This document shows positions 2,503 through 60,900 of a stretch of DNA of 64,000 bases, piece after piece. Where the stretch lies: assembly GCA_028716965.1 (NCBI GenBank), contig JAQUOV010000003.1, positions 5,302-69,301 on the forward strand, in the 5' to 3' direction. Under the pieces are notes generated by a model that had not been told where the DNA came from, ran no database searches, and saw only the letters and a program-made list of their open reading frames with translations. Position 1 is the stretch's first letter. Each line of letters starts with the position of its first letter. The position numbers and the translations under genes were made by a program. Source of the stretch: Candidatus Omnitrophota bacterium. Its GTDB lineage: Bacteria; Omnitrophota; Gorgyraeia; Gygaellales; Profunditerraquicolaceae.

Positions 2503-2526
2503 GGAGATGTTTTTGGAGAAGTTAAA

Positions 2527-15032: not shown

Positions 15033-15033
15033 C

Positions 15034-15882: not shown

Positions 15883-15889
15883 CCTAAAG

Positions 15890-18069: not shown

Positions 18070-18126
18070 ACTCCTTCCATTGATCGCGGGGGATTTTCCC
18101 CTGGGGATAGGTTATAAAAAGACGTA

Positions 18127-18143
18127 ATGTTAAAATTTAACAT
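18127..18143. promoter_or_regulatory. Perfect 17-bp palindrome ATGTTAAA-a-TTTAACAT in the 113-nt gap upstream of the ABC operon; a candidate operator.
   Basis: It has 8-nt arms around a single central base, read directly from the sequence. It overlaps a candidate -10, and a TTGACC -35 lies at 18157..18162 on the minus strand. Confidence 0.4.
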
Positions 18144-18182
18144 ATTTTCTCCCCCCGGTCAAGGTTTTTTGTTTAAATCCGG

Positions 18183-18905
18183 TTAAGCCCTGAGCACACG
18201 GGCAATACCCATTAAATCCGCTTTCTCCAGATTTATTCCGCTGTGGTATTTGTTGTCCTCCTGTAATCCTGACCAGACCACCTCGCCTCTTAAATATAGC
18301 GGCTCCCCCTTATCCGGGATTCTTAGCCAGATCTCAAGAGGAGTCTTCGGCTCAAGTTTCTCGTCCGCTTCCAACCTCATACCTTTGGCGCTTAAATCCC
18401 GGGTCCGCGCCTGGCCTTCAGCCCCGGAATAAAGATTTAAAAAACTTAGCCCTAAACGTTTTTCAAACCTTTCGAATATCCTTCGGTCTTCAATCATATC
18501 CCCATCTCCCTTTGGTTGATTAATATCATTATCAATATCTTTCCACCATTGTTTATTAATTTGCTCCTGGAAATTACTACGCATGAATCTATATAACTTT
18601 TCTTTGCAAGGATCGCTGATTTTGGTAAAGTACAGGCCATAGGAGTGGTTTTCCCCAATCGCCTTATGCCAGACAACCCAAGCCTCCAGATTATCCAGGC
18701 TGCAATCCTCAGAGAGGACCAAACTTAACTTTACAGAGCTATCAACCTTGATTTTCTCAGACAGACAAACCCTTAAACCTCTAATAGTTATATCATAAAT
18801 AAGGCAATTAGTAAAGTCTTTCGCTGCATCAGCACCTTCAGCATCAAGCCTTATCTTTGCCTGCCAGTTAGCCCGCCACCTGATTGTCTGCCTATGGTCT
18901 TGCAT
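18183..18905 (-). CDS. Tandem PilZ-domain protein, a putative c-di-GMP receptor.
   Basis: Two RxxxR + D-x-(S/T)-x-x-G pairs are present: RQTIR ... DITIRG, and RRIFER ... DLSAKG. The start codon at 18903..18905 overlaps the giant ORF stop (18892..18894) by 14 nt. Confidence 0.55.
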   Translation of the reverse strand: MQDHRQTIRWRANWQAKIRLDAEGADAAKDFTNCLIYDITIRGLRVCLSEKIKVDSSVKLSLVLSEDCSLDNLEAWVVWHKAIGENHSYGLYFTKISDPCKEKLYRFMRSNFQEQINKQWWKDIDNDINQPKGDGDMIEDRRIFERFEKRLGLSFLNLYSGAEGQARTRDLSAKGMRLEADEKLEPKTPLEIWLRIPDKGEPLYLRGEVVWSGLQEDNKYHSGINLEKADLMGIARVLRA

Positions 18906-36900: not shown

Positions 36901-39900
36901 CAAGCCCGCGATTATTCCTGTGAGCACGTCGCCTGTTCCGGCAGTAGCCATATAACGATTTCCTGTTGTATTGCGATACACTACACCTCGCGGATGAGCG
37001 ATAACTGTCTGGTCCAGTTCATGCCCCTTCAAAACTACGATAACCCCATACGCGCTGGCAAATGTCCGGGCTACTTCAGCCCGATTTGCCATAATATATG
37101 CCTCATTCTTACCGGTTAACCGGCTCATTTCTCCTATATGAGGCGTAATAATTATCCTCCCCCCTGCTTTTCTTAATAGTGAAGGCTTATCCTTTAAAGC
37201 AGTAAGCGCCCCGGCGTCCAAAACAATAGGAATTTTCGTATCTCTTATTAAGGTATAGACCATTTCTTTTGTTCCTTCTGTTTCTGATTCAAGGCCCGGG
37301 CCGACAGCTAAAGCATTAATTTTAAATTTCCGTATAAAATCAAGGATCTGCGCGGGTTTTTGTCCCGACAAAGTAATTACTTCATCGAATTTATTTGCAT
37401 TAAATTCCTGCCTTAAATGTTCGGGAATTGCCGCGCGCACTAAACCCGCTCCGCTTCTCACCGCGGCTTTGGTGGTAAGTTGCATTGCGCCGATATATTC
37501 ATCAGAACCGCCTACCACTAACAACCTGCCTCTTGTGCCTTTATACGCATCAGGCCTTACTTCCGGCACAAGAAACGCCGCATCTTCTTTGTGTAACCTC
37601 TTTACGTCTTTATTCAGTACCGCCTCAACAAATAAGACTATGTTCGGAAATTCTACGTTTTCTGTGATGATTTTTATATCTTTGTCCCAACGGTTAATCT
37701 GCCGAGCCGGAGTAAAGTTATCAACTATAGCCGTAAATCCTAATTCAGAAAGCACATCCACATATTCTTCAATGCTGAAATACTGCCAGCCTTCTTCTCT
37801 TTCAATATCCCAACGCGGCCCGCCCACATATAAATATTCGCAGGCAAAAAGCGGAAAATCCTCTTTTTTTATTCTCACTCTATAGCCATTTTTTGAGAGT
37901 TTTTCATAATAAATTTCCTTGGGCAGGAATTCCCGCGCAAACCCGTAGAATCTGTCTCTTGTATCCTTATTCTTAAACTGAATCACTACATATTCATTTA
38001 ATTCATCCCGCGAAACAGCTGCCCCGTCATAAAGATAAAGGTGGCCATACGGCTTCATCATCAGCTTTATATTACCCAACGCCCTGGCAACATATTTCTT
38101 GCCCAGTTCAGGCACAATCCTTTCATGTATATCTCCAGAAGGCCTGCCGTAATAAGAGTAAACTTCATGCAGCACATTGATGACCAGCACAAAATCAAAT
38201 TCACCGGTTAAATCGCTTAAATCTCCATCAATAATATCCCTGGTTATATAGCAGATATCGCCGACTACCTGTTTTGCCTCATCAATAATATCCGGGTTAA
38301 GGTCAAGCGCTACATACTCAATGTTCGGCTCGTTGGGAAATATCTCTTTAAGCAAGGCTATTTCTATTGCCTGGCCGCAGCCGATTGATAAAATCCTCAC
38401 CTTCTCACCCCGGCTTAACTTTATCCTGATAGCTTTTATGAGGCTTTCCATAATCTTTCCCTTGCCGTCTAAAACCATAAAAGATGACTTCATGCCATCC
38501 AAATAATCTTCCAGTGTCATGCCGCTGCAAACCGGCCTGCCTCCTTTAAATTCAGCAAACCTGCGGTAAATCTTGTTTTCTTTAATATAGGCGCCTATTT
38601 TGTCCGGCACATAATCGTCAAAAGGATTACCACCTTTAACACATACCCTAACCCTTGCTGAAGAAATATGCTGATAGTATTCATTAACAGGCAAACGATA
38701 TAAGCTGCCTGTATATTCTCTCAGATCCGGTTTCACTGCTAATAGATTATCAAGATCCATCCCTTCCTGATCAGCCACTACAAAGGTATAATTATCAAAT
38801 AATTCTTTTATAATATCTTTCCTGCCTTTATGCTCCCACTCAAGCATAGTGTTAAATGAGAGCATCCCGGTAATAAAATGTATATCCGCGCGAGGATATA
38901 ATCTCTTGATTTTTCTGCCGATATCAAAGTATAAAGTATTTTCGCTAAGTATTATTTCATAATCCTGCCTGTCATTTGCCCATAGTTTCAGCATCTCTTC
39001 CCGTTCATATAAGCTTGTCCCAAGCACTCTTGTTCCCCTGGGGTTGCCGGTAACCGCTAAAATAATTTTATCCAAATCATGCTCTTGTTTTGCTTTTTCC
39101 ATTACTTCAACCATGGATTTAGTCAAGGGGTTAAAAGTACTGGCAAAGACTCCTAATTTAAACCTGCTATTATTTGCCAGCGGCGAAGCGGCGATGGCGG
39201 AATGCCTGGAAATCATAAACATAGTATAGACATCTAACGCCTTAATTAGTTCTTGTATGGGGAAAGAGCTGTTAAAAGCCCCAAGGTCGGGATTCTTTTT
39301 GTCTTCCATCCATCCGTACGATCTATAACCCGGGAATGAAAACTCTACGGATGGATCAAAAATTCCCTGCGGCAGTTTCTTCTGGTTCAGCATGTGCACG
39401 TAATGTTTATCCATAAAAACAGCCATTTGTTTAGCCAACATGCCCCAATTCACTAATGCCGAGATATCCGCGTCATTTCTTAGAGTAAATACCTCATAGG
39501 CATGGCCGAATATTTTCTTTATCCTTATCGAGAGCTCCTTAATATAGCCGTTCCCTAGATTTAATTTATGCCGGCTCTTCATTCGCTTGCCTTCGTTTAA
39601 CACCCAGGCCAACAGATAGTTCCCCATAAAGTGGGCAAGCAAGATTTTCCTGCGCTGCGGGACAGGAAACCTTCGCAGGTTATTACGCAGGTAAGCCGAA
39701 TGCCTGTTCTCTAAATCAACCAATTCATCAAGGGTAAGCATTTCGGCAAAGTCTGCCGGCCCAGAAATCCTCATGTTGATAAAATTAACCCCTTTCTCCC
39801 AGGCATGCATTCTACCTGTACCCCTTCTTCTCTCTAGGGGCCGGATGATCTCCGTCATCCAAAGGAACACCCCTTCATCAAGCCTTGCCCCCTCCAAACA

Positions 39901-42900
39901 ATGAAACAAATCAGCTATGTCAGGGTGAATATACCCATACCTGGCAAGCAAAAACAAATCGTGGATATTCCTTAATGACGCCTCGCCTATTGCTTCATCA
40001 TCCGCTTCATGAAGATAGATGAAATAATCAGGAGTTTCAGTGGTATACAGCATTACGGTATAGAGGTTATCCTGAGTATCAACCGAAAATTCATTTCCAG
40101 GCTGTTCATATTCCATGATGGATTCCCTTATGTATTGCGGTAGGTCTTCCATGTCGATCCTGAATGCCCGTTTCCCGTCTAAAGGAAGCGCCCGCGGGTA
40201 ATCTCTCTTTAAAGGAACACCCTTTCCTTTTAAAATGTTTAAATGGTCAAAAAATTCACTTTCAAAGATAAGGCTTCCCGGATCTTCTCTTATCTCCTGC
40301 CATTGGCGCTTTATCCTTTTAAGAAACTTTAGGGCAATAAATTTATTCTCCCTTGTCTTTACCGCTGTTGTCCTCCCCATATTCCTAAATAAAACACTGC
40401 CTTTTAATTTCTCCAGGAGCGCTGCGCTATTACCCAATAAAGGCGGCTCCTGGGATTTAAACCGTGGACCAGGTACGCTCAACGTGCCTAGTGTCACCGG
40501 AGGAGAATCCAAAATGCACCTTTCCGCGATCCGGCTGAATGTATTAGGACTGTCGCCGTTGATGGTAAAAGCGATGCGGAATAATATAAAGGCTTTTTTT
40601 ACAAATGGATGTATCTTTAATCCTGTCCTGGATAAAACCGATAAAAATGATCCCAACCTGGCGGCCGGATAGGCATAATTGTCTTCTGATGAGCGCGCAA
40701 TCTCTTGGGTAAGTTTCTCCTGTAATCTGTTATTTATATAATTCACCGTCTCATGCAATCCCGCCTTATTTTTTATCTTTTCAGCCAAGATCTCAAAGAA
40801 AAAGCTCCTATATTGCGTGTCTCTAAAGAAAATGAATAACTGTATTAAATCATTGGAAAGATAGGTAAGGAGGCAGGATGCCTTCAAATCTGCTTCGTCT
40901 TTTAATAGGAACATAAGATTTAAAAGATAAGAATAGATGTTGTCGGGCTTAAAGCCATATTTATCCGCGCAAAATTCTACTAGCAGCTCCGGAATATTCT
41001 TGATCCTTGCAATCAAACCTCTTCTCAACAGGGATTCTATCTTCTGAATATTAAGTTGCCGCACTGACCAATCGCAATTACAAGAATTTTTAATAAACTC
41101 TTCCGGAGAGAATGAGATTTCTCTTTCAGATGCGAATCTTTCTTCAGCCCTTTCTTCAGCCCGGTATTTTAAAATAAGCTTGCTCGCTATTTTTTCTTTC
41201 GGGATTATTCCTGATTGGAATAAATAATTTGCTACGGCTGATTTACGCGCCCAGGAATGCCCCCCTGCGCGCTGGGAATCTCCTGCATCGGGGATTAAAC
41301 GGTTCAGGTTTATTTCCCTTTTTAATCTTTGCCTTTCTTCCTCTCTGATCAATCCGGCATCGTTGAGATATTTTATTGCTTCAGCGTTCCTGACCCAAAT
41401 ATAAGAATCTGCCTCGTTTAATCCGGTAATTAAATCAGATAAGGGAATTCTTGCATACATTTCTTCTCTTTTTATCAATCCGGCCTCAACAAGGTAATTT
41501 ATTGCCTCGGCGTGCTTTGTACGCTCATCAGGATTCCCGGAGTTTAAACCTGCGCTTAATTCTTCCAGGGGGATCCTCCCTTCCAGCTCTTCTTCCCGGA
41601 TCGTCCCTGCGGTAAGCAAAGAATTTACCGCCTTGGCGGTTAGGAAGCGGATATGAGGCTCTTTGTCGCTTAATCCGGAAATAAAAATATCCAAAGCTGT
41701 ATAATAAAGATACGCCTGTTGCAGGGTGGCTTCGTTCAGGAATATGTCTTTAACCCAATCCCTGAGTGCTGCGGATTCTCCCAGCGCAGAGGCGGCACCG
41801 TAACTCTTGGTTCCTAACCCTTGGCTCGTAAGCAGCCTGTTCTGTGTCAAAAACTGGGCTTTTTCATTAGGATGTTTTCTTATCCCAACTGCCTGCCAAG
41901 GTTGGACAACGATACCTTTCCCGCAGCTGTACAGAACAAAAGAAATAAAAGGAGGCTCAACTTTATTTTTTATATACTTTCTATAAGATGGCATACCCGT
42001 ACTGGGTCTACTGAAGGTCGCCCTGATGCAATGCCGGAATTCTCTTAATAAGCCGGCTTCCAATTCTGCGACTCTATATAAAATATACCGTTTAGCCGCC
42101 TTGACAATTTCTTCTTCTATTCGCGCAGGAGGAATACTGTCTAGAAATAGGTTTCTTCTTGCATGCTCAACCCATCTTTCAAAACCGGCAGTCTTCTCCA
42201 GGTGCGGATAGATTCTTTCTTCTACAATACACAACTGCTCTTCCAGCTCTTGCTCATACTGTTTATAATAAAATGAAATAGCGACTATGTTAAACAAATC
42301 ACGATATCGTTTTTCCTGCACCATTGCCCTTAAGCTACGAGTATATTTTTGCGTTCTTACGCGCGGAGTTCCATTTACCCTTTCTGTTGTTGCGTCGGGG
42401 ACTACCAGGTTTATTTTTATCCCCGGAGGGTATATATCCTTAATTTCTAAAGATAAGTTATGAAGATTGCCAAAAGTAGCCTCTTCTGCCAAATCTGCTT
42501 CTGAAACCGGTAAATTCGGGTTCTTTACCCCTCCCCACCCTAAAAGAAGTTCTATCGGTAAATTATCAGCGGCTATTGCCCTTATTCTTTCTATGATTTC
42601 TTCCCGGGACATCTCCGGATGTTTAGGACCCGTCCTATACCTTCTAGAAGTAAATATCGTATATATTTGTTCGCATGTTTTTTCTAATGCGGACACTATA
42701 GGTGATCCACCGGGAATCTGCGTAGAGGCACCAGAACCACAAACATAGGGCAGTTGAATTCCTCTGCAATATACTTTAAATATTGAGACAGGAAACTTCA
42801 CTTGACTTGACCAATAAATTCCCCACGGGATAATCCCGAATATCTTTTTTGGCTGCCACTCTATAAACTGAAACCTAACCCACTGTTTGAGCTCCAGCTC

Positions 42901-45900
42901 TACTATCCCATTATCTATCTCTTCCACTGAAGAAAATTGTATTAAAAAGGTTCCACTATCATACCGAAAACCTTTGTGCCCATCTCCGACAACCTCCCGC
43001 GCTTCTTTTATTGGAATACCTTCATTTATCTTTAACACCGTAACGTTATCAGCCGGTATATTTCTTCTATTAAGCTCATTGCGTAATATTCCAGCCAATC
43101 GGGCTAAGTCTTCCTGCGTGTTGGAAATTCTTGGAATGTAGGAAGAAACATCCACTTCTGATTTCATAGGAGGCAAGATTCTACGATAAAGATTCGCCAA
43201 TAACCCTAACGGCGAGGCGCAGGAAAATTGAGCAAAGTGCTGTTTTGTAGATTCCCATCGGCTCACGAATTCTTCAGGTAATATTGCCAATACTTTCCGC
43301 AAATATTTATTTTCCTGTAAAATATTTAAAAATGCGCTGGTTCCCGATAATACCGCTTCTTCAGTCAAACCCAACTCTCTGCCTAAATGACGTACTCTAT
43401 TTTCCGATTCTTTTGGCTCTAATATAATATAAGTTGCCGCCTCGTCAACTGCCCTTAAGAAATATGCCTGCTCTTCGATTGCTTTGCGCAGCGTCAAATT
43501 ATTAGTTAAATCCAAAAATGCCCTAATCTGCATTTCCTGTTCCGGTGTCATAGGATAATCAGTGCTACGAACCAGGAATATAATACGATTAATATCTATT
43601 TCCAGCTTCTCCAATAATCTACGGATTTCCCCACTCTTGGATAAATATTCTATGGTATTAGCGACTACCGGCTTAGAACCCTGCTTCCTCCCCGGATGAA
43701 GGTCATGTAATAATCCGGCTGCTCCCATTTCCAGGATACACTCAACAGGATACCCCTCATATTTAGAAATAAGAACAGACAGATAAGATGCTTCTAAGCT
43801 ATGGCTAAAGGTATGATAACTGTGGATAAGCCAGGTGTCTTTATCATATTCAGCTTTCACAAATGAAAATAACTCATCCAGATAACTCTGGGCTTTGCCT
43901 GACAGATTAAGGATTTCTTTTATGTTTACCCACAAATCGCTTTGTAGCGGCGAAGCGACAGTTCGCTTACTTTCCCTTGCTTCTAAACGGTTAAGGTTAA
44001 TCAACAGGTTTTCAATTTCTGCCTGCTGGCTGATATAAACTGCTCGGGCCTGCGGGTTAAGAATATTTACCTGCCCATAAGGCACCATATTCGGCAGATG
44101 CTTGCGGTAAACTGACTCGTGAATATACGGAATAAAAGGCATCCGTATTTCAGGCATTTCTTTAATCTGGCAAAACTGCTCCAAGAACCAAAACCAGTTA
44201 AAATAAAATTCGCGTATATCGTCCTCTAATTCATGCAGGCGGCGCGCTGCCCAATATGTAAAAATACCTTCTTTCCAGCTAACCATAATTAAAGGAACTA
44301 ATAGGTCTTCCGGTAGGTGCATAACAGGTAAATTCTTGCAGCGCTTAATAACCTCATCCCGCAGCCCCTTGAATAACTCAATAAGATTCTTTATCCTTCC
44401 CTCATTTTCAAATTTTACCAATACAATACCGGTAAATGCGAGCATTTGAAATTTGGCATAGTTTCCCAAATCATATATCTGGGGAATAGCTTCCCTGACT
44501 AAATAGTTGCCTAATTTCTCATGATTAAATCTGGCAAAGAATTTTTTGATCAGCTTAGAATGGTCAACTAAAAATATCCCTGATAGTTGTGCTTTAACCT
44601 GTGGATAAGACGCCCAGGCACTCATTAAAGTTATATCCCCTTTACCCCCCATAATCGGCCCAAGATATATCCTGTCCGCATTTAAGATAACAAGAGAACC
44701 GGAATCAATGGCTGAAGCAAAAACTGCCTTGTAAGCATTAAGCAATTGCAATTCAAATGTTTTAAGCGGACGTTGCAGCTTTCCCGTGAGACCAAAGGGC
44801 AAATTCTGCAAAAGGGTATTTTCATCTTCATTGTCGGCTAACAAACCTATAATTCTTAAGTCTTTTACCATTTTCCCGTTGAAACTGCGGAATTCTTCCT
44901 GATCGCTCATAAAACTTACCTGCGAATCGCCGGATAGCCTTTCCATTAAAACTGTGGCAGGATCATCAAGGTTAACCTGTTCAAACAGTTTCAACATGCT
45001 CAAGCCGTTACCTTTACCATAGCCATGCATAAAAACAACAGGGACATCCTTACGCCATAGAACCTGTTTTGTCTCCTGTAATAAATCTTTCAACAGATTC
45101 ACGCGCCCAAGGGGGTTGCCTGCCATTACAAGAATAATATCGGCGGCTGGCTCGCCATTGTTCATTTGAGCATCGCATGCTTCCTGCATCCTGTGATATT
45201 CCTCATTGCACATCTTTTGCCTGAAATCGATTCTTTTGTCAGACTGCGCCGAAGAAAACAATCTCAATCTCCTTTGCAGCATTCCCGCTTCTATTAATTT
45301 TGACTTATAGCGGAAACTGGTAAAATCCCATTCGAGGAATATCCAATGCATTACCATCGGAGAAATAGATAAAATAATCCTCCACCAGTCGCTTAACAAC
45401 CTGATATTGCCTAATTTGGGGACAAAGAGTTCATACAATAACACCGCGGACAATATGCTAAAAATCCTGGAAATCGTACTGCGGTACGGCCATCCTTTTC
45501 TCCAGCCTAAACGTGATTTCTTGGTTCCAGAAAGATAAAAATCGATATATTTCTGAAGGGATAAACGGATATCTTCGGGATTCGGGTATAATCCCGGGAT
45601 AAGCCGATTACCTAATTCCATAATAGAGCCCGTTAATTTCTTTAATTCTCTTTTATTTACAAACGCATTGAGGCTTATACCAAAAATCGATCTCATTACC
45701 GGCATTAATCCCAGAATTTCAAAAATGCTCCACGGCACAAGTATATAGCTAGGCACACCTTCAATATTGCCCATTCTATGCATAGCCCAGCTGTAGCTAA
45801 GGCTATACCCCCTTACAACTCGCAATACATCGATTTTTACCTGTAATCCCCTGCGGGTAGATTCGGGAACGGAGAAATTTTTTAAGTAAGCCTTTATTTT

Positions 45901-48900
45901 ATATACAGCCTTTAAGGCAATTTCATCCAAACGCCTAAATGCCGCCTCCCTTTCCTCCTTTACCGCATCTGTCATTTGCGTAGAGAATACATTCGCAGCA
46001 ATCAAACCATTTATCAGGGTAAGCATTTCCGAAATGCTTCTTTCATGGAGATTGGTGATATCGCTGATATGTTCTTCGTAATAATCATTTACGAGCTTAA
46101 ACGCCATATTTTCCTCTATAATATGTTGTGTTTGCAGCCTGAACATTTCTCTAATCCTGCGGCCTGTCTGCCAACGCGTATAGACGCAGGTTGCATAAGC
46201 AATAAGGATAACAATACCGAGCTTTATCTTTAACGGGATAACCCCGAAGGATTCAGCCAATACCCCGATAGCGCTATAATCTTCTACTAAATCGCTGGCT
46301 GCCCAGCTAACTAAAGGTATAAACAATAGAGAGGAAATTCCCGCTATGAAAATAATACTCCAATTCCGCCATCTGCTTTCCAGTATCCTTTCGGCTAAAC
46401 TAAGTGGCGAGGCGGCAGGGCTGTTAGGCGGGAATCTTTGCCACCTTTCCCAATACCGTAAAGGATAATAGATATTCTTCCTGATATAATCATATGGTGG
46501 CTTGCGGCGTAAGATATGCTTTTCAATGGATGACAAAAGATGCGGAGCCAATATCTGCTTAACCCTTGCTAAGTTATATTTATCGGCTCTAGCTACTTGT
46601 TCGAAAATAAAGGTATTCAAGCGGCCCATTGCGCCTTTATTTGTTCCTAATATCACTGACGTCTCAAAATCTATAACATACGCCTTTGGTGCCGAAGGAT
46701 CACCGGCCATAATATTTCTCCATTTGTGAAGAGAACCATGCGCCACTCCTTCTTTATGCAATTGCCCTACAACCCGCTCCAGATTTTCCACAAATTCAGA
46801 AAAATAACCTGAATTGCCTGCCGGATCATCCCTCGTTTCCTGAAAAACATCGGCCAGCGTTCTGGCTTCAATAAATTCAATGTCAAATACCCTGTTATTA
46901 AGCACCCTGAGTAGGCCAGGAATCCCCTCTAAGCCGCTTAATCTATTTAAAACAGCCACTTCTTTTTTGGCTAATAAAACAAAAAATGCGTATTTTCTAA
47001 TAAATTTCTCTCCATCCGCTTCATATAATTCTACCTTCGCCTTGAAATCTTCACAAATCAATCTAACTGACTGCGTATTCACCGGAGAGACGGGCTCAAG
47101 ATAAGCAGGACTGGAGGCCTTACGCTCCATGCCAAAACCCGCCACATAAGCACCCAACGGCGAGGAGGATAGGTAATCTAACGAAGAAATAACTGCAATT
47201 AGAGGCTCATTGGTCAACGAAGTATATTTGACAATCTTGGCCATATCTTCATCCCCCGAATAAGTGGCTGTTTTTCTTACCGTGGGATAGCCGGCTTTTG
47301 CCGTTAGCTTAACAAATTGTCCCGGTGAACGCCTGGTGATTAAAACAATTTTCTTACCCGGAACTTCGCCGGAATCATAGGAATATACATTCATTTCCAT
47401 CCCCTGACAACACAGTGAATCTGCAAGATTGCTGTAGAATTCCATAAGCCATATCTCGGAATAAGGAACAAACACGGTGTTTATGATAACTCCGCCATCC
47501 TGAAGCTGATTAACCAAATTACACCATGCTTTTAAAGGATCATTCAGGTATCTTAAAACAAAAAAAGCCGTTATCAAATCCATTTGTCCGGGAAGTTTTA
47601 TGCTTGTGATATCTCCCGGTATGAAATTAAACGGCTTATACTCTGAAAGATAAAGTCGCACTTCCTCCATAGGATATACTTCTTTTATTTCCTTAATTTC
47701 TCTCTCGCTTAAGTTATTACCATTCCAATTTATAACGTCAGCTCCGTAACAAACCAAATTATCCCCGAAAGAACTCTTGGCTCCGATCAAAGCCCTGCCT
47801 ATGCCGCATCCGGCATCCAGCCATCTGACAAAGCGCCTTGAAGTTTCCCTGTTTAAATATTCATTTAAACAAAAATCAGCGCCTGCCTCTTTTAATATTA
47901 AATCGTAAGTTTCTAAATCCCTGGATTTTCTTGTGCGCTGGTGGATTAGGCCCTGTTCAAATATGAGGGCTCCTTCCGGGGTCGATGCTGCAAAGAATTC
48001 CAGCAAAATTCTGATGGTAAGAAATAGTTGTAACGGGGAATAAAGGATGGATTGATCAAGATAGAGAGTTTTCTGGAACGCGCCAAAGAATAGATCAAAC
48101 GGCCCTGCCCTAATTCCTCCGGCATCAGCTAAGAATTCATTTAATTTAAACACCAATTCATGTCTGCCTGTTTCATTTAATGATGATTTCAGCGGCAGAT
48201 ATATGTCACGTTTCAATATCACCTTTTCTGAGCCGGTTAAAGGCCGTAACAATGCCGCGTGCGTTTCTATTTCGTAGCTAATTTCTTTCTCTGTCAGGGG
48301 CCATCTTGTTTTTGAACGCGCCGGGGCAAAAGGAGAACAAGTCAAAGCTGAACTAGCGCTTCTTGGTTTCTTTTCTCTCAAATTCCCGGTACCATTGTTA
48401 GAAAAGTCTTTATCGGTAACTTTATACAGGAAAATGAATGACGGGATGCTGGCTAATGCGGCTACCAATACTATGCCTTGCAAAGAAAAATTCGCGCTCA
48501 CCAGGATAAACGACAGGATGGTGCCAAAGATCCCCGCCGCTGCATCTATTGTCTTGCCTAAACCAAAAGCAGCTCCGGCTTCTCCTTCCGATAGCGAAGC
48601 CATATACGCCTTCTGCGTTGTAGAGCGCATGCCCAGACCGGTTTGGTTGATTATTTTTGAAATGACGATCATCAGGAAAATTCCCGGGAAAAAGGCAAAA
48701 ATGAATGTCGCCACCGAATAAAAAAAGTATCCTGTACATATGAATGCTTTTTTGGAAGCGAAACGCCCTGAAACATATCCGAAGATTAACTGTGAACAGG
48801 AACCGATAAGGATAGTTATGGCGGTAAAAATACCCATCTTCATTGCCGCCGCGCTGAAATTATGCATAATAAAAGGTATGACTGGAGAGACGATCTCCTG

Positions 48901-51900
48901 TGAAAAACTCAAGAAAAATGAGGCCATCCCAAGCCGGCAGATATTATAAATTGAATCGGGGTTGAACCTGCCATTGGGACAAGCATTATTTTTCAGCCAT
49001 AACCATGGCGCTCTCCAAAAATCAAAAGGGGAACGGTCTTTCCCGAGCCCCTCTTTCCTTATCGCGCTGGAGGATACATAAATACCCGGGGTCGCCGCAA
49101 ACCTATCAATAATCTCCTGGTATGCCTCTATTGCCAGGAACCTTCCGTTGCTGCCGTTATCAAAAACCTCCCCCCTCTTGTTCTCTTCTTTAAGATATAG
49201 CTCGAGGTGCTTAGGCTTAATGCGCATTTCTTTATCAATGAGGCTTATTCCCCTGGCTGTAATCAGCAGTTGCCGTTTTAACAGGTAACTTGCCCGGTCG
49301 ATTACATCGCGGAAACTCCCCTGGACATGCTCAAGTTCAAGATCAGTACGATCGCTAAGATGCGGCATAGCCGGTACAAATGTGTTTAAGGTAGAAAAGA
49401 TGCCTTTACGCTGTGATTTCCTGTCCAGTTTGTATAAAGTGGAAAGGTTATGAATTCTATCGCAAAGCTTAATAAAAAGCGCGATCGCAGCTTCATAGTC
49501 CCCTGTACGCGCGGCCTTAACAATCCGCAGCAGATATTCTGCTTCGCTTTCGCCCGGTTTTTTAGATAAAAGCACAACTATCCTGTAAAGCTCGGGGAAT
49601 TCTCTGCGAATCTTCCGCTTAACGGCAACGTAGTCTTCTCCGGCATCTTCAAGCGCGTCATGCAAAAAAGCCACTATTATCATGCTTATTAACCCGTCTG
49701 GGCTAACAATTACATTAAACCCGAAACGTGATAACACATTTCTGGCGTACAAAAGTATCTCGCTTGCTATCTCAGCCACCCCGACGGGATGCCAAATATA
49801 AGGAGTTGTTCTATCTCTGCGCGCCAAGCTCAAGTGTTTTTCCGCCACAATTTCCAGGGCTTTCTTAAGGCTATCCCTGTCCCCGGGCCGCAAGTTAATG
49901 CCTCTATCCCTAAGCAGCGATAAAAACCTGTTTAAAACCTTATCTACAAGGCTGCCGCGGAATAAATCAATAGTTCCGCAATCTTCCTGCCCGACCTTCT
50001 TCTTGAGTTTCTTCTCAAACCGTTCAAGATTAAGGCTATCGGGAATCTCTAATTCAAAGATAAAATTAACCTTATTCCTTGTCCCGGAGATGCGGGGAGT
50101 GAGAAATTGTGATATGTTAATCCTGTTATCTTTAAAAAATACGGCGATTTCGCGTAAATTTCCCGGCCGGTTCGGCAGAGTAAATTCCAGCACATATGTC
50201 TTGTATTTGCATTCCTTAAGTTCATCCTCATATTTTTTGTCGCGATAATCCTTTACTTTCCGTAGCTCAAACAGGATTTCATTCAAAAGTTGTTTTTTGG
50301 GAAATTCAAGGCCCAATGTTAATATACGTCCGGCACTGCTTTTCTTCATTGCCATAAAGGTACCATTAGCTTTATCTCCGATCTTGATTAAAATATCAGC
50401 AAGAAGGCCCGGGCGTTCATTATTAAACTTGATTTCAACATCCCGTCCCCATTTCTGCGCGGATTTTTTCCCAAACCGCCACTTTCCCTGAATATGCCTT
50501 GCCTGCACATATGGCACTTCAACAAAAGTCACGGGAGAAGCTGCCTTTATCCGTTCTTTCGGCGGCTTCGGATTGCTTATGCTGATAACAACGCCAAAAT
50601 GCTCTAATACGTAATATAACTGCAAAGCCCCGAATACTTGTTCTAATTTACTCCTGATATCCGTATTCGGCTTCTGCGCCTCAATAAACAGCTTGAATTC
50701 AGCCAGCGTAAGCTCAATGGTAAAACCCTCTTCGCTATATTCATATCGCTGGCGGAGCTTTCGCCCTTCAATGGAAATAATATTACAATCCCGCCTATTG
50801 GCAAATGCAACCAGCTTTTTTATAAGGTTCGGCTTGCCATCCTTTGATTTATCATGTTCGCCGTGGATAGCCACATTGTTAACTACCCTCAGGAATTCAT
50901 CATCCCGGTTTAAAATTCCCTTTTTTCTATGCGCCTCAATTAGCATTCCAAAAAGTTGCAATGCGATCTGGCCGACAAGATCCCTGAGCCGAAGGGTATA
51001 TTTAAATTCATAAAGCACTCCGCATTTACCGTCATCGCTGCACCTCCAGCCGTCGCATTCTATTTTTTTCTTTGTTTTTGGAAAAGCGTAGATTGTATTT
51101 ACCGCGTTTAAACCAAGTACCGGAAGGGATAAATCCAATGCCCTTACCGTATCCAGGAACTCAAAAGTGAACTTATAAACTCCGGAGACCTCCCCTAAAA
51201 TGCCTTTTACCGCGCAGGCATATGTATCATAGTAATTCTTAAGTGCTTTGCTCGATCTGTTGGATTCGCCGGGCTTTGCATTTCCTATTTCAAACATCCG
51301 CAATAATGTTTTCTTTACGGCATCGAATAACGCGCAGCGCCTCCTGATATCTTTATGGTGTATTTCCCAGATGCCTTCTGAAAGCAATTGGTCCAGCTTT
51401 CTCAATAATACGCCCATATCCGCCCTATCTTTAGCAAGCGGCTTCTGCCACCGCGGGATAACCGCCAGGCCTCCGAGCAATCTCTTTAACGCGTCGTCAT
51501 CCTTGGTGACGGCAATAAGGCCGAGAATCAGGCTGAAAATTCTTCCTTCTGAAATATTCAGGACGGTAAAACGAGGGATTAGGTCCTGCTCTATATAATC
51601 CTGCAATTCATTACTGATAACAGGATCTCCAAGCTCTATATTGTAAACAAGAGAAAACATCTTGGAGAGATCCGGTATCGCTTCCTCTAACTGCCGCATC
51701 CTGCCCGCAGCCGGATAATTGTATTTCTCTAAAGAAGATATGATACTGCTGCGTTCAGCCTGCGCCGACTTCAAAACAAAGATTACGTCACCCTGATGCG
51801 TCTGCAAAGATTGATTCATTGATTTATGTATAAAATGCCTTATGACAAAGGAGATAAAACCCGGATTGTTTATCTCCTCCAATGGGAGCACGATGCACAT

Positions 51901-54900
51901 TCTCTCCCTGCTTAGTTTTTCTGTTAATACAAAGATATCTTTATCCGCAGTAAAGACGACCCCAAACTCAAATTGAGAGCCAGTCGGTAAAAGGTCACCC
52001 ATCGCCTTCCTTTTTCTTAAAACATCCAAAGCCTTCTCTAATGTATCCTTGACCTGCGCCGCATCAAAACTACCTGGCTGCTCAATAATAATATCCCCGC
52101 CTTTAACATATCCGCTTACGGGAAAAATGCGGCTATCCAGGGTGCCTATTGCAGAAGAAGAAATCTTGATTAAATCCAAAAACCAATCATTCCTCACATA
52201 AATTTTAATTTTTCTTTCAAGCAAAAGTCCTGAATAATCAACCACAACGTCTGCCTTAGCAAGCTGAGCATTTATTAAAGGACCTTCTTCCATCTCCGAC
52301 CTAGCAAATACCTTAAGATTTTGAGTAAAGTTATAACCTTTATTGACGCGATCACGACCATCCCTTTTGTCTAAACACAACAAAGGCAAATCATCCACTC
52401 CGATTTTGATTATCATTAATTCTTCTATTTCTTCCCAAAGCCATGCGTAAATACCTTCCAGAACAAATGCGTAATAATCTTCACCATAATATGGTCCATC
52501 ATGATCCTTCTGCTGGGTCAGTTGAATAATACGCTGCAAATATACCGGAGTGCTCCCGTCCAATAAATCTAAGATTATGCTCCGCATCAATAGATGATCC
52601 ATCATATCGGCACCCTTAAGGCCTTTTTTCCTCCTTTCCTCCCGCAGAAAGAAATAATTATCGGTCTGTAATCCTAAAAACGGAAAATGGATTGTTCTTC
52701 TCAACATTCTTATCAACATCCTGAATAATTCGCTCTTTCCCGATGCCCCAAAGCCGGATATGCCGATCAGTCTCCTTCTATCCCCGGATTCAATTCTATA
52801 GCCGTAGACCTTTAACAGGATTGCACAAATATCAAGGATAATATCGCGAAGTTCGCCATAGAATAACTCAAGACGTGTTATACCTTTCTTAAGCTGCTGC
52901 ATCTTGCACTCAAGATCCAAAGGAACAGTAATCTCTCTCAGCAAAGTAAATTTTCCTGAATTCCAGTTACGCTCATAATGAGGTACCCAAATCGGCTTAT
53001 TCGTTTCTTCGTCAATAATTAGACTGAAATATTTGTTTACCAAGCCATTCGGCAGGCCTCTCTTCAATGCTGCTGAGATCTTCTCAGTCATAATCCTAAA
53101 AATATCGGTCTCCTGCGCTTCTTTGGAAGTTAAAAGATAGTAGTAAGTTCTCCGAATACTATTTATATCAGTTTTAGCACCGAACCGCGATTTAAGCACC
53201 CTCTCTAAGCTTAGTTTATTGTCCTCAAGGCCGCGATACTCTTGTTCCACTTCGGAAATATGGGATACCAACTTCAGCGAAGAAGAGGCAGTTGGAGAAA
53301 ACATACGGATATCTATGCCGAATTTATTTTTCATTTCATTAAATACGCTTTCCAGGATCTTATGGTTATAGCCCGTATACTTAAAGTATTTTTTCCCTTT
53401 AGGTGTAACTAATTCTTCTTTTCTCTGGGAAAAGTAGCCTAAACTCTTAAACGCCGAAGGCCAGTCTACATCGTAGGCGATAATGGTTGAAATACCATAA
53501 TCCAAAACCTGCTTAATTCCGATATAGCGCAAAGTTTCTTCCAAGCCCTTGCGCTGATATGAATCTTGTATATCCAAACTCAAAATCTCCTCCTCCGCCA
53601 TGACGGCAATCTTCTCATCGGGATAAATCCTGAAAATGCTTGTCCCAATCCTCCGCTCGCTAAAATCATCGTAGAGCACATCAAGAAAATGGGATACCGA
53701 TACGCGTGGCTCAATATCTAAAATATACTGCCGGACTATAAATATTGCTTTGGGACTAATTACAACAGCAAGGGCAGGACACTGCCTCAACGAAACCCAT
53801 TTCTTATTGCTTTTAGGATCTATAAGCGCAACGGCATCACCGGTAATTTTTACTTCCTGACTGATCCTCTCGAAGATTGTCTCAAAAGAAACATCTTTAA
53901 GAAGCGGCGCATAAATACTTGAAGATGCCATAAGCCCGTCAATAATCTCCTGGCGGACTTGCGCCATAGGAGAAGAGCCTTTAGATGTTGAGAGTAGTTT
54001 TCCGTTAATAAAGAAGTTACTGGCATTAGGCTCAGGCAGGACTATGAGAGGGAATTCGCTGCGCGCCCCTCCTCCTTCCCAGCCTCCATTCTCCGATTTC
54101 TGCGGCCAGAGAAAACTTAGAATATGCCTTCCCGGCTTTAGGCCAAAAAACGGGACAAAATATTTCTCCGCGGCCTTTCCCTGTAAGGCCGGGATAAAAT
54201 GTTCGTACCCGCTTTCTTTATCTTGCAAATAAACGATAAAAGGATTGTCGTTTTCTATTAGAAGGAGCTGATCATCCAGCAGTAGTGTCTCTTTATACCT
54301 GCTTTCTTCCCAATTCCATTCCACCAGACGCTCTCCCAAACGCATAAAAATATTGCGCGGAGTTTTTCCCGGCTCTCGCAGGCTCTCAGCAATCAGCCCG
54401 CGTTCAGGTTCTTTGACGGAAGGAAGAATATGTTTACGCATCCACTCTTCAGGGCTCTGCTCAACCGATTCAAACCGGTAAATACCGATTTGTCCGGGAG
54501 CCAATTCCGTTTTGAATATCGGCGTATTCAGGACAAGCTGCTTTCCAGTGATGAGTTCTTTAAAAACGAATCTATTGCCTGGATGAAGCCCAAACTTCCA
54601 GAAAGGCAGCGGAAATTCAACTGTCTTAGGTATGTTGCTGAAATTAACTACGATTAAAAGATTATTTCCTTCGTGCGCCTTGGCAACGCATAGCAGGCGC
54701 TCGTCATTGGTAAAAATACGGGTTGCTTCGGAATAATTTACCGCGGAATTGTTCTCCCTCACCCACACACACATCTTTATTAAATCCGAAAAGTCAAATC
54801 GACCTGCCTCCTCCGTTCCCCAGATTATCGCCTGGTCGCTTTCTCTTTTCCACTTTGCCGGTTCTATCGTCCCCAGATCGTCAAGACTGAATATTTCGGT

Positions 54901-57900
54901 CTCTAAGAGGGGAATAAGGAGTGCTAAAGCCAAAAGCCCGGGCCCTCCTATACGTATCGCTTCCCTCTCGTTCTGTTCTCCGGTCAAGTACTGCAATAAT
55001 CCGAGCATCTGCCTGAAGAACCGCTGGTGGTCGTGGTTGCCAACTACAGTTTCTATGGCTTTACGGGAATTCTCTATTAGGTCATCACAATATCTATCCA
55101 GAGTTTTGAAACTTTCCTCAATATGGATAAACGAATACTGGATAAATCCCAGCCAATCAAAATTTATATCGCCTCCCATCTGCTCTATAAGGGCTAAAAG
55201 GTTATTCTCGCGGAAATGTTCGGCAAGCGCCCCTGCCAACAGACAATGATTGTTATTTTCGGGTAACCTGCCATAATCAATATTCTTATCCCCGCAGCCG
55301 CACTTATGCAAAGCATCTATCCACCAGCCGCTGATACCGGGGCATAGTTTCGTCCAGTACTTATACGGTTCTATGCGAGGATCAGTCTTGCCTTCTGCTA
55401 CGAGCCGGGCAATAAAATTCTCATCCCATAAAGCCAAATCTGCCCACTCCTGGTAATCGATCCTGTCGGGGCTACGCACTATGCTCCCCGGGCTCTGTAT
55501 TTTTCCATCTATAACCACAAAGTAATCCGGGTTAAACTTCGCCTCCGTTCCCTCTTCTGAGGGATAAAAAGGCATAGTAGGTAAAATACGTATACCGTCT
55601 TTCTTAAGAGAATTCTCCATTTTATTTAAATTTTCTACTCCTACAAACTGTTCATAGAAAATAAACTCTTCCAATTCCGGATAACTCAAGGGCTCCCTGC
55701 CGAAATACCGTGTTTCTTTATAATTTATTTTATCTACACCGTAACCTTCCCATAGAGATATTCTTTCTTTAGTTAAGCAGGCGTATTGCCGTATTTTCTC
55801 AAATTCACAAAACCTCCTGAACGCCTCCTTCCTATCGCTTTCGGCAAATTGTTTAAAATGTTCAAACTTATCAACTGGGAATTCTCCTGCATCTTGAACC
55901 TTGTTCCAGTCTATTACTCCCGGGTGCAACGCATAGAAAGAAAGAGGCGCGAATGGGCTTGACCAAGGTGTCGGAAAAAATGGAGAGAGGATGAAGACAT
56001 TTTTGCCGGTTTTCCTGTTGAGCTGACGGATAAAATCCTCTATCTCCGCGAAGGTAGGAACCAGCCTATTTTTTATAGTGTAACCGGACGAATATCCGGA
56101 TGTAATGACATCCGGAAGGAAAACATAATACGGATGGTAAGTTTCCCGCTTGAGCCAATCAGGGACTGAATGAATGTGTATAGTAGCAATGGAATCCAGT
56201 TCTTTAGCCCAAGAACTCTGGTTCCTGAGCCAGGCATAAGCTTTGAAATTAAAAAACCCGCTCAAACGCTGGGGGGTGAGTTTTACTTGCGCGACAAAAA
56301 CCTGTCTACCTTGCTTATCTCTTTCCTGATAAACATTATCTGCTGGTGCAGTAACATCATACCAGGAGTCTTTATAAGGATTATCCATGTTTGTGCGCAG
56401 CGCAATCGCCAGGTCCTGCGGCCTCAAGCCATATCCGCTGTTTACCTTAACAATGATTTTAACCTCAAGGCTTTCTCCCAGTAAGAGCGGAATATAGCTT
56501 CCGGCAGACGGTTCCATATCCAATTCCAATGCCTCCAGAGGCACATCTTTACGCAATTCCTCTAATTCTTGAGGAAGCACCGCTGAAGACGCTCTCCCTT
56601 GTTCGCAATTCTTCCTCCCAAATAAATTACTGCCTCCGGATCTTTCTTCGGTATAGCTAAGCGCCCGCATCACTGCTCCTAAAAGATCCGTTGCGATGGG
56701 ACTGGAGGTAACCGGAGATTGCAGAGCCACGACGGTCAACGTTTTTAACGGTTGATCTTCCTGCAAAGGGGTCCGAGAAATTTCATACGGCAGCCCCTGG
56801 CTGTCTTTACTAATGCCTATTTTCACAAATCCTGGATAGTGCCGATATTCTTTCTGTCGTTTGGGATAAAGAGCCTCAAACAAGATACGGGGACGGGAGC
56901 CTTTTGGCAGGTCTATTACACGCATGCTCATTCCGTCTGCCTTGCTTTTCAAATACATAACGAATATGCGCCCTTTTAAAGAATTTCTTATGCGGTTAAA
57001 ATTCTCTTGCAGATTTGCAGTGAGAGGAATTTCATCCGCATAGAAAACCTGTTTATCGCCTTTCGATCGCTCATAAGGAAACTTATATAACAGATACGCC
57101 CAGTACGGAATTACCCCCAGCTCTTCCTCTCTCGGCTGCCTGCCGCTGACATACTTTTCATATTCGGCCGGCTCAATAACCACTATTTCAAACGGCAAGG
57201 GCTTTTTACCTTCCCTAAATGCTATCGCAAAGCTTAAACGAGTCGCTTCATATCCTTTTTTGGATTTGACCTGCGGCTTAGTTCTATACCGTATACCTTC
57301 ACTTTTAAGGTATTTGACAATTATTTCTTTTATTAAGTACCTATCTTTGGTGATAACACGCACCCCCATGATGTCAACAACCTTTCTTCGCCCTTCTTCG
57401 CGCAGCAGGCCCTTGCGTAAAATACTGACCGCGTCTTTTACTCTGCTTTCGATTTTTTCAACGGTAACCCCGGATTGCTCAAATTGAACCTGCAGTTGAA
57501 AAGAAAATCTCCGTAATTCATTCTTCATTTCTTTGCGGGAAAGCCCGTATTTTACTTCAAGATTTCTTTTAATCTTTCTATAGAGGGCCGTGTGTACGAT
57601 CTTAAAAGAGATACTCCTCATTTTTTCAAATAATATGTATTCGTTAAGGCGTGCCGACAAAGGTACAAGAACTTCTTCAATTTTCCTATAAGTATAACTC
57701 TTTTTCCATTTGGTCGCTTTTGTCAATGCCTGAGTTTCATCCCCAAAATCAAGCACCAGATTATCCGCATCTCCGCAGGACTGGATAACGGCATTCTGGT
57801 AATTCTGTACGGTATTGCTTCCTTCAATTTCAGAAATAATGCCTCCCACAAATGGCCACCCCATTGAAACCTTTTCCAGGATTTCAACCGAGGCTTTTAT

Positions 57901-60900
57901 CGCTTTCGCATCATATTCCCGCAGGTATTCAAGTTTTTCCCATTGCCTCTTAGCAAAGAATCCTTTGCGCTGCTCTTTTGTTAATTTATGACAGAGGGCT
58001 GCCAAAATTATTTTTACCGGCATCCTCCATATCGCTAAGGTCAAGGCTACCTTCAGGGCATGTTCAAAATATGTGTCCTTGGAAAGGAATGCTTTACCGC
58101 CGTACTCTTTTTTGACTGCCCAGGCCCCCGCCGTAACAGCCCTTGCCTGCGCAGGGCTATAGTTTACCCATACTTCTTTCTTCAGCCGTCTAAAAATACG
58201 CTCTTCCTTCGGAGTAAAAGAACCCGTGGAAAGGACAACTGGAGAACTACTTCTAATTCCCCTCTTTCGTTCCTGCTTAAACGAATCTATTATTTGCCGT
58301 AATTCCGAGGCGTCTGCCTCGCAAGCGCATTCAGGCAACACGAATTTACGCCACAGCTTACCCTCCGATTCAGCCAATAATTCTCTATAATGACTGACGG
58401 ATAGAATACGCTGGCGCACCCATGAGGCCGCTATTTCTTTAACCCCTTCTTCGGAGACCCCTTCATAGACGCGCTCTACATGATAATAGTACCCTCTTCT
58501 CACAAATTCCGTTGAACAGCTGACAAATCTAGGACAAGAAAAATCAATTGATTTGACCTCTTCTAGGCCTAAATTTAAATATTCATAGATAACACACTTC
58601 CCAGCTTGCGCTATTGCAGATGCAATAATCTTTTCAATTTCATCAGGGTTATTAGTTCCTTCCGCTATCTTCATTAAGAATTCTTTCAATATATGCGTAG
58701 AATAGCCTGCTTCAATTGCAAATAATAGATAATTTATGTACCTTTCTTTTGCCGCTATTTCGCCTTCTTCAAAACCGCTCCTTAACTTATTTGACTGCGG
58801 AATACCAGATACACGCTCTATGGTAGCAGCAAGGCCAGGGAATAAGAAAACAATAACCCCCGCTATTACTGCCAGTAAAACGTATCCTGGCGTAATATTA
58901 CAAATTTCAGAAATCGAACAAAGGTAATCAATAGACAGGATTCCGATACACCCCAAAACTAGATATCTGAGGGTATCAGAGGAAACCGGGCTGGCAGAAT
59001 GCTGCCTTCGCGGAAGCTCGCTTCTTTCAAGCCCTTCCATGACCATATCCGATATTTCTTCTGCAAAGATATCTGGATTACCGGCAATATGCTGCTCAAA
59101 AGAACGGGTGGATAAGATACTCATCCCTGTCCTATGCGCAACAAATCTCTTTAAGTTAGGATTGCCGACAAGGCACTCCCCGTATGGAACCAGCCAGCTT
59201 ATAACAGGAACGGGCCTCTGTTTCCCCGCTTGGCTATCTTCAACTGCCAAAGCCAGATCCGTGACAACAAATACGAAATTATTTTCCGATATTACCCCGG
59301 GCATGAGCCGGAAAATTACGGAGGGGAAATAATTGAACTTTATGTAACGTAATTGCGAAAGCACATTAAGGTATTCTTCCTCGGGGTCGAGAACTTCATC
59401 CGGATCCTGCGATGTTCTGCTTAACGGCTGATAAACTATTTCCGGAGTATAGGTTATATCAAACTTTGTTCTCGCCTTGCGATGTATGGCGCCGCATACT
59501 CTTTGCCTGTTTTCCCATAGAAGCGTTGTATCGTCTTTCGTGATAACCGCTATTGCCACCTTAAGGAATTCCTGACCTGATTCCATGGAATTGGGTAGAG
59601 CAGGACTGGATCCCCCCCTAGAGATCTCCTCCAACGCGTTGCGAATAATCTCAAACCCCCTGGCGACCTCCTTGGGGCCGATGTCTTTGCTTTCCAATAA
59701 ATCATCAATTGCAGCGATACCGAACCGTTTAAGAAATAACAGCTTGGGAAACAACCGCTTCTTAAAAATATATCCGTCGTCATAGTCGATATTACCTGCC
59801 AGGATTATCGCTTCCTGCAGCGCATTCTTATCGGCATCAGTGCAAAAATCATCGCATTCAAGCGCAACTCCATCTACAATATCCTGCAAGAATAGCAATA
59901 CCGTCTCAAGAGAAGTAAATGTGGTTATATCCGGATTATCTATGCCTGCGCCGACTATACCGATTATCTTTCCTTGGTATAATACCGGCCCGCCGCTTGT
60001 GCCGCATTCTGACCCGGTATCCAAACTCATACGCTGTTCAAAATGACCAAAGAGTATCTTTTCACCTGCCGATGCTATGCGCCCCTGATATAATCTCAAT
60101 GAATTTTTTCCGATTGGATATCCAAGGATAACTGCATGTTTTCCGCAAATAGCCTCTTTAGATACCAATGCCGCGTCTGCCAAAGATATAGTCCGTGTAT
60201 ATTCTTTCGCTATCCCCTGCTTTTTAATTCTTAATAAGGCTAAATCAACTGAAGAAGAGCGAAAAGTATCTGCTACGACCTCCGCCTGTACCTGTATCCC
60301 GTTCCGAAGCCTTACTGTGACATCGGGGTTATATTCCCTGCGTGTGAATGAAAATGGATTGGTTACGTGGGAAGCGGAAAGTATATAATAATGCTCCTCG
60401 CTTGCATGAAAGACCACCCCTGTCCCTTCTCCGATATCTGATATATCCCGTATCCCCAACTGCCTAAGCAGGAACCCCTGATCATCTTCTTCAATGCCGC
60501 CCCAGCCTATTCGGATCCTTACAACTCCATTTTGCATCCCCTTGATAAAAAACTTGGGGCCTAAATAATAAGCAGCCGTTATATTTGCCGGGCTGCCAGC
60601 GCTCCGTTTAGGATTTCTGGATATATCCCCTATCACCTCAATACTCATAGTGCCGGCAAGGGCTTTGCCCGGATTCAAAATTACGGGTGTTGCTTCTAAT
60701 ATTCTTTTCTCCGTGTATAGGTTAAACGCATCGGTAGCTGATGTCTGCGGCTCAATACAGATAGTATCCTTATCTGCGGGAGCATAAAATACAATATGCT
60801 TAAATACGGAGCTTTGGGTTACTTTGATGAGGATACCTTCGGCAGGATTATAGAGCAAAGATGTATCGTGGGACAAATCGGTAAAGGCATCATCGTAATT

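Follow-up and report, generated by a model that had tools for sequence, protein, structure and literature searches.

This locus raises the question of what half of a membrane transporter is doing in the middle of a giant, enzyme-rich protein. We analysed a stretch of 64,000 nt (hereafter the window; positions 5,302 to 69,301 of contig JAQUOV010000003.1, Candidatus Omnitrophota assembly GCA_028716965.1), in which one open reading frame (ORF) of at least 15,035 codons occupies 18892..64000 on the minus strand and includes the N-terminal half of a major facilitator superfamily (MFS) transporter. With somewhat better than even confidence we favour a reading in which the ORF encodes a mosaic giant protein and the half-MFS is one of its membrane anchors, not an autonomous transporter.

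Counted from the first TTG, at 63948, the protein has 15,018 amino acids (aa), and the 17 codons upstream of this TTG contain no stop; because the frame is open up to the window edge, the true N-terminus of the giant protein lies beyond the window. Residues are numbered from this TTG, codon n ending at 63948-(n-1)*3. The residue numbers and coordinates of an earlier note on the window, referred to below as the sequence-only reading, were reproduced exactly, and the single-chain mega-protein that it had described is indeed one open frame with Pfam domains in the same frame over 45 kb.

Identity and fold of the half-MFS module

The half-MFS module lies at 48370..48960 (minus strand) and contains six helices (aa 4997-5020, 5035-5062, 5066-5084, 5090-5119, 5124-5151 and 5156-5175), placed from the AlphaFold model, the profile and the alignment. 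The Pfam family MFS_1 matches aa 5007-5193 with 59.2 bits (cut-off 33.4; E 4.4e-16) over positions 2-190 of the 347 in the profile. When 1.84 billion representatives were searched exhaustively with HMMER, 1428 matches were obtained at E<=1e-3, the best of which is 30% identical; the best 150 of the 1428 are all ordinary proteins of 158-557 aa, aligned over their own residues ~3-220. We also built a custom hidden Markov model (HMM) from 108 full-length relatives of the module. In the six-frame translation of the window it gave a single match (E 6e-35), covering HMM positions 11-199 of 392, and no match to the C-terminal MFS half (HMM positions 200-392) was found in any frame of the whole 64 kb.

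The AlphaFold model, computed with a 14-sequence alignment, has a predicted local distance difference test score (pLDDT) of 82 and a predicted template modelling score (pTM) of 0.76, and consists of six long helices and then a tail that is hydrophilic in sequence and disordered in the model. The leading Foldseek matches in the PDB are all MFS transporters (NorA, SPNS1/2, LmrP, YajR, VMAT2), with template modelling scores of 0.66-0.75 when normalised to the query and 0.3-0.45 when normalised to the target, about half of each target being covered. Hence a six-helix N-terminal half of an MFS transporter is built into the giant protein, and the half-transporter proposed by the sequence-only reading is borne out by profile, custom HMM, model and Foldseek alike. 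As regards what defines the family, the module has the family profile above the curated cut-off and the N-domain fold; of the two six-helix bundles that together give 12 helices and a central cavity, it has only the N-terminal one.

Two further possibilities were tried and rejected. A neighbouring gene does not supply the missing half, since the downstream ORFs include a PilZ gene and ABC permeases and no C-terminal half occurs in any frame. A recent foreign insertion of the module was rejected on the GC content, which is continuous across the module and without anomaly.

No long protein carrying a counterpart of the half-MFS was detected among the best 150 HMMER matches or in a word-indexed search of 5.8 billion proteins. 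Precisely, the word-indexed search returned only ordinary MFS proteins at 22-29% identity for aa 4960-5240 and one weak match for aa 4960-6400, while a metagenome contig scan with aa 4700-5500 returned nothing. A module for which searches yield no orthologue might be expected of an artefact, arising from faulty assembly, from the remains of a pseudogene or from a frame open by chance. We consider this highly improbable: 45 kb run without a stop codon at a GC content of 43%, Pfam domains lie in the same frame on either side of the module, GC is continuous across it, the helices are intact and the fold is confident; moreover, about 80% of such long proteins are sequence singletons (bioRxiv 10.64898/2026.06.07.730766).

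Degeneration, orientation and probable role of the module

We compared the module with 13 relatives, all from one subfamily. Its TM2-TM3 loop (TM, transmembrane helix) carries, at 48748..48780 (minus strand; aa 5057-5067), the sequence GYVSGRFASKK, which the alignment identifies as a degenerate MFS motif A; the GRFASKK loop singled out by the sequence-only reading is therefore this motif-A loop, with its Asp replaced by Gly. The module departs from the pattern G-x-x-x-D-(R/K)-x-G-R-(R/K) in that Gly5061 stands in place of the conserved Asp and A-S in place of G-R. Columns conserved in >=12 of the 13 relatives are kept by the module in 27 of 65 cases, and conserved charged positions in 4 of 17. 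The TM4 signature 'LDRxGKGIRxxPRDALIAD' appears in the module as 'INQTGLGMRSTTQKAYMAS', and 12 residues in its helix columns are charged, where the relatives have 19-26. The module retains R5108 and D5135 as well as several glycines that are invariant in the family.

Loops 1, 3 and 5 contain no lysine or arginine (K/R); these residues are concentrated in the TM2-3 loop, the TM4-5 loop and the two flanks of the module. From this canonical charge pattern we infer that the half-MFS is oriented N-in/C-in. Having six helices, the module would therefore leave its two neighbours on the same membrane side and the sidedness of the chain unchanged.

Helices 1-6 of 12-helix permeases of the DHA1/Spinster type (NorA, SPNS2, LmrP, YajR) are matched by the module in sequence and fold; its motif-A loop is also placed as theirs is, and its charges follow the same N-in/C-in pattern. 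The module differs from these permeases in having no helices 7-12, a Gly for the motif-A Asp, the loss of most charges conserved in the subfamily and a position in mid-chain of at least 15,000 aa. Judged by what it has lost, the module is probably a membrane anchor, and transport by the module alone is unlikely.

It might still work as half of a transporter, pairing with a second copy of the giant chain or with an unseen C-terminal half into a 12-helix MFS-like pore that would feed, or export from, the adjacent enzymes. Split halves of LacY can complement each other. A homodimer of 6-TM MFS units that functions in nature is not known to us. The well-kept fold (pLDDT 82) and the retained glycines, R5108 and D5135 are what such a half-transporter would show, and MFS proteins are thought to stem from duplicated smaller units (PMC8154325). 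With no C-terminal half in 64 kb, and with the motif-A Asp and most conserved charges gone, we regard a working half-transporter as improbable.

A recurrent pentapeptide at the junctions of a mosaic

The Pfam scan of the giant protein, done in 1000-aa pieces, gave ~24 domains of ~20 distinct families. The first part contains, in order, HAD, aldose 1-epimerase, Trypsin_2, RelA/SpoT, a weak GH77, PRK, ACT, HD_4 and MFS_1; the middle contains several methyltransferases, DIT1/PvcA, CTP_transf_like, Carb_kinase (183 bits), APH and a second CTP_transf_like; the last part contains HD, B12-binding with Radical_SAM, Response_reg and three further methyltransferases. Three 1000-aa stretches are free of Pfam matches at E<=0.01 (25849-28848, 39349-42348 and 52849-55848, minus strand).

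The giant protein has 15 copies of the pentapeptide [SA][SA]SP[LVFI]; 0.21 are expected, and 300 shuffles gave 2 at most. The copies start at aa 524, 1651, 1900, 4469, 5594, 5845, 8253, 9710, 10117, 11517, 11623, 13591, 13917, 14175 and 14953 (as examples of coordinates, 39178-39192, 34807-34821 and 33586-33600, minus strand), and the 13 neighbouring genes (5,911 aa) contain none. The core SP[LVFI] is found 43 times against 12.2 +/- 3.5 expected, and control tripeptides are not enriched. Because the codons differ between copies of the strict motif, the pentapeptide must be under selection as protein sequence; the same variation ruled out a DNA repeat or recombination site, which we had also considered.

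The copies coincide with module borders. All three homology breakpoints (aa 5210, 8258 and 9706) fall within 5 aa of a copy, which for aa 5210 is the core SPF; four of the five membrane clusters begin no more than 25 aa after a strict copy, a result reached in 0 of 100,000 random placements; and ten Pfam domains start 10-75 aa past a copy. The half-MFS itself lies between two junction-like SPF tripeptides (minus strand), one at 49024..49032 (aa 4973-4975), 24 aa ahead of helix 1, and one at 48328..48336 (aa 5205-5207), 30 aa past helix 6. On these sequence grounds the pentapeptide marks fusion junctions, where it may be a linker, a modification site or a cleavage site.

Two of the breakpoints delimit a cassette of five domains and 1,450 aa (NadD-like, methyltransferase, NAD(P)HX dehydratase, APH kinase and NadD-like; Pfam CTP_transf, methyltransferase, Carb_kinase, APH and CTP_transf) at 34807..39192 on the minus strand (aa 8253-9714). 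It is bracketed by copies of the pentapeptide at aa 8253 (AASPL) and 9710 (ASSPF), with no copy inside its 1,457 aa. Two other Omnitrophota genomes have a counterpart of the part aa 8258-9706, ~50% identical, as a gene by itself (1572 or 1599 aa; L081, 10001-14719; L084, 8107-12906), in both cases with a Sec-type signal peptide and with unrelated neighbours. A second metagenome scan, with the cassette alignment, gave one unrelated locus of normal size (L085).

The third breakpoint directly follows the half-MFS. The segment aa 5210-5312 (48016-48321, minus strand), which starts 5 aa after the SPF behind the module, is 40% identical to residues 790-892 of P0164, a partial Omnitrophota protein of 1,775 aa annotated as a diguanylate cyclase, in which no MFS half precedes the shared part. 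In both proteins the shared part opens with 'ARSKT..LTEK', a few residues after an SP dipeptide.

The surroundings of the stand-alone cassettes were also inspected. In L081 the cassette gene belongs to an array of five consecutive large genes (1656-18447; 614-1572 aa), four of which have a near-identical signal peptide (MK..R..QTNTFFR[IV]TAL.L[IV]W...), that of the first gene being different; all five then bear a short xL[SA]Px element, and next to the last of them come genes for a C39 peptidase and a DUF6627 protein. This array looks like an unfused counterpart of a giant gene. The neighbours in L084 have N-terminal hydrophobic, signal-like sequences that are not alike.

Other membrane segments

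The sequence-only reading had listed five hydrophobic regions, and all of them are present, with Kyte-Doolittle 19-residue means of 2.1-2.7 across aa 1662-1710, 5005-5178, 5862-6210, 10121-10148 and 11541-11601. Hydropathy counts were dropped as a test of significance, since residue shuffles match the observed number (9 hydrophobic 19-mers at summed dG<=3.5, against 10.5 expected) and a TopPred-style threshold calls helices in soluble domains. The 'certain' helices that this TopPred-style scan placed in soluble Pfam domains reached scores of 1.48. Nine helices score above this internal false-positive ceiling, at >1.6, and we considered these as safe on hydropathy alone: aa 1688-1708, four of the MFS helices, 5863-5883, 10124-10144, 11540-11560 and 11580-11600. 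The partner helices aa 1662-1682 and 5906-5926 score about 1.0 and are marginal.

Cluster A (58819..58968, minus strand) is composed of a strong helix, aa 1688-1710, and a marginal one, aa 1661-1682, and is preceded by SASPV at aa 1651. Cluster B (46180..46359, minus strand) has the same composition, with a strong helix at aa 5864-5884 and a marginal one at aa 5903-5926; AASPL at aa 5845 precedes it, its flanks are K/R-rich and the loop between its helices is acidic. Further along the chain are weak hydrophobic segments of uncertain membrane status (45328..45747, minus strand; aa 6068-6098, 6160-6178 and 6183-6207), for which a single-sequence AlphaFold model of aa 5845-6240 was uninformative (pLDDT 46.5). 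Segment C (33505..33588, minus strand) is a single hydrophobic segment, aa 10121-10148, placed directly after SSSPV at aa 10117, with 0 K/R residues in its N-flank and 5 in its C-flank. Hairpin D (29146..29328, minus strand) consists of two strong helices, aa 11541-11562 and 11581-11601, lies between copies of SSSPL at aa 11517 and aa 11623 and has the C-flank RDERKRRQSKK.

Of the several TM hairpins claimed before, hairpin D hence stands as such; in A and B the second helix is marginal, aa 10121-10148 is a single segment and aa 6065-6208 is weak. The giant protein thus carries the half-MFS and, by hydropathy, at least five further strong membrane helices. By hydropathy or homology the helices total 13, or up to 17 with the weak ones, which corresponds to a hydropathy-based 1.8-2.4% of residues.

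Sidedness of the chain and the probable role as anchor

In the favoured reading, the module (aa ~4976-5205) represents the six N-terminal helices of an MFS permease of the DHA1/Spinster-like type; it lacks the C-terminal bundle, the motif-A Asp and about half of the charges conserved among its relatives. It would insert into the membrane with both ends cytoplasmic and serve membrane integration and anchoring, holding the upstream ACT/HD block and the downstream methyltransferase block at the inner membrane face. The modules of the giant mosaic would be joined at the recurrent [SA][SA]SP[LVFI] junction, and most other membrane segments, which directly follow the motif, would resemble the N-terminal signal peptides of stand-alone homologues of the modules. 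If the marginal helices span the membrane, the clusters are even-numbered, with their K/R-rich flanks inward, and all the enzyme blocks could be cytoplasmic.

Several points weigh against this. The searches gave no orthologue by which purifying selection on the helices could be judged, and anchoring is deduced from losses, as judged against a single subfamily. A lone half would expose its former cavity face to lipid; the loss of charges fits this, and it also fits simple decay. The predicted segment aa 10121-10148 breaks the parity of the all-cytoplasmic arrangement, except if cleavage removes it or if it does not cross the membrane. Finally, to assume that enzyme blocks are cytoplasmic is unsafe in this phylum, because stand-alone homologues of one 'cytoplasmic-type' block, the cassette, carry Sec signal peptides.

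The last two points lead to a second self-consistent arrangement, which we consider possible, if on balance doubtful, and in which clusters A, B and C each span the membrane once and enzyme blocks lie on both sides of it. The N-terminal HAD, aldose epimerase and HtrA-type protease would then be outside, as would aa 5884-10123, with the DIT1-like domain and the NadD-like/methyltransferase/NnrD/APH cassette; the blocks around the half-MFS and everything after aa 10148 would be inside. Clusters A and B each have exactly one helix above the false-positive ceiling, as such an alternation would have it, and the three strong helices have flanks whose charges agree with out-in, in-out and out-in, which does away with the difficulty of parity at aa 10121. 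The signal peptides of the stand-alone cassettes have AxA-like cleavage sites, all the large neighbours of these genes also begin with Sec-type or signal-like sequences, and most domains of such giants were predicted to be extracellular (West-Roberts et al. 2023, bioRxiv 10.1101/2023.11.21.568195), although the same authors regard TM predictions on these proteins as unreliable. The alternation would also place outside the K/R-rich flanks aa 5927-5940, 6145-6159 and 6209-6232, together with enzymes that depend on ATP, S-adenosylmethionine and NAD(P)HX, and giants with TM helices only have been read as membrane-anchored cytoplasmic domains (Nielsen & Lui 2026, bioRxiv 10.64898/2026.06.07.730766).

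Possible proteolytic processing

The sequence-only reading had also considered that the modules might be separated after processing. The giant protein contains a Trypsin_2 (HtrA-type S1) peptidase domain at 59935..60426 (minus strand; Pfam E 2.7e-13) with intact triad motifs, SASH(1195)V, D(1225)LALL and GTS(1319)GGP. The chain could thus be a polyprotein, cut at [SA][SA]SP[LVFI], for example after Leu/Val by the embedded protease, into separate enzymes, some anchored in the membrane by their N-termini, and a six-helix protein of ~230 aa on its own. The intact triad and the junction motif give this circumstantial support: strict motif and looser core both exceed expectation as counted above, with differing codons and no strict copy in the neighbouring ORFs, and copies stand within 5 aa of all three homology breakpoints and shortly before four of the five membrane clusters, sparing the inside of the cassette. 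A cut at aa 10117 would, in addition, remove the parity problem, and cleavage of such giants has been proposed earlier, the cleavage sites not being known (bioRxiv 10.1101/2023.11.21.568195). We nevertheless consider a polyprotein unlikely: a Ser-Pro motif in a linker could have a structural function alone or be modified, a PDB sequence search with the Trypsin_2 domain gave no match, and the few further Omnitrophota proteins that were inspected show no enrichment of the motif.

More doubtful is the most far-reaching form of this idea, a bacterial polyprotein written in a 'junction code', in which [SA][SA]SP[LVFI] would mark every fusion point and the HtrA-type protease would cut there after Leu/Val, freeing anchored enzymes and a half-MFS that might pair with itself, as is presumed for the MFS ancestor. 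If true, it would supply the cleavage-site information that the field lacks for Omnitrophota giants. Viral polyproteins offer a parallel, as they too have an embedded protease of the S1/chymotrypsin fold with an intact triad and a short motif at module borders; they differ in that the host here is bacterial, the modules are metabolic enzymes and cleavage is hypothetical.

Relation to known giant proteins and to six-helix MFS members

Giant proteins of Omnitrophota have been described with domains including methyltransferases, peptidases, radical SAM and HAD, and with carbohydrate import genes nearby (West-Roberts et al. 2023, bioRxiv 10.1101/2023.11.21.568195). A catalogue of 916 such proteins names one class 'multi-enzyme metabolic cluster'; TM helices or a signal peptide are present in 94% of them, ~2% of residues lie in helices, and the 80% share of sequence singletons mentioned above was reported (Nielsen & Lui 2026, bioRxiv 10.64898/2026.06.07.730766). 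The present protein resembles these giants ('Archaeovorin-type', 'multi-enzyme metabolic clusters') in its phylum, its single ORF of >10,000 aa, its many enzyme Pfams, none of which dominates, its scattered helices at ~2% of residues, the carbohydrate import next door and its singleton sequence, and it shares with them methyltransferases, HAD, HD, radical SAM, a response regulator and a peptidase. There are differences as well. The junction pentapeptide is not described for them, and the SecA DEAD-like domain, present in most, not all, Omnitrophota giant multi-enzyme proteins, has no Pfam match within the 15,018 aa visible, the N-terminal part being outside the window. We therefore consider the protein as a fresh, sequence-unique example of the published multi-enzyme, membrane-anchored class.

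That half an MFS fold in a larger protein is unusual, as the sequence-only reading put it, is overstated as regards the class, since TM-rich giants are published and six-helix enzyme fusions are found in TCDB; for the specific module, the searches detected no long protein with a counterpart. MFS or PF07690 is mentioned neither in the main texts nor in the supplements of the 2023 and 2026 preprints. The TCDB members with six transmembrane segments (TMS) of the MFS superfamily that are fused to enzymes (9.B.111 '6 TMS LysS' and 4.H.1 MprF; PMC8154325) are alike by description, having a six-helix domain joined to catalytic domains, and differ in that theirs are N-terminal domains of ordinary-sized proteins with a defined lipid-related role.

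In the module, half an MFS fold persists as a folded unit of six helices while its partner half is missing; this clean example from nature bears on the re-use of such folds as anchors. Within the class it is a curiosity, and the junction motif is the most promising lead. The pentapeptide gives a concrete, testable way to split giants into modules, usable for structure prediction, for searches of proteomic data and for the question of processing; the lack of such junction information is an obstacle named by the 2023 study (bioRxiv 10.1101/2023.11.21.568195).

Gene neighbourhood and host

Downstream of the giant ORF there are 13 ordinary genes on the same strand. The first, at 18183..18905 (minus strand), encodes a protein with two PilZ domains of the cyclic-di-GMP receptor type, and its start overlaps the end of the giant ORF by 14 nt, which suggests translational coupling. 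A sugar-type ABC importer, composed of a solute-binding protein and two permeases, lies directly downstream (15034..18069, minus strand), and the other genes encode GH-like/TPR proteins, ROK, LacI, ribonucleotide reductase and MnmG. The MnmG shares 87% identity with its counterpart in a Candidatus Omnitrophota metagenome-assembled genome, and ~70 further genome matches are almost all to Omnitrophota, which assigns the host, as judged from its genes, to this phylum.

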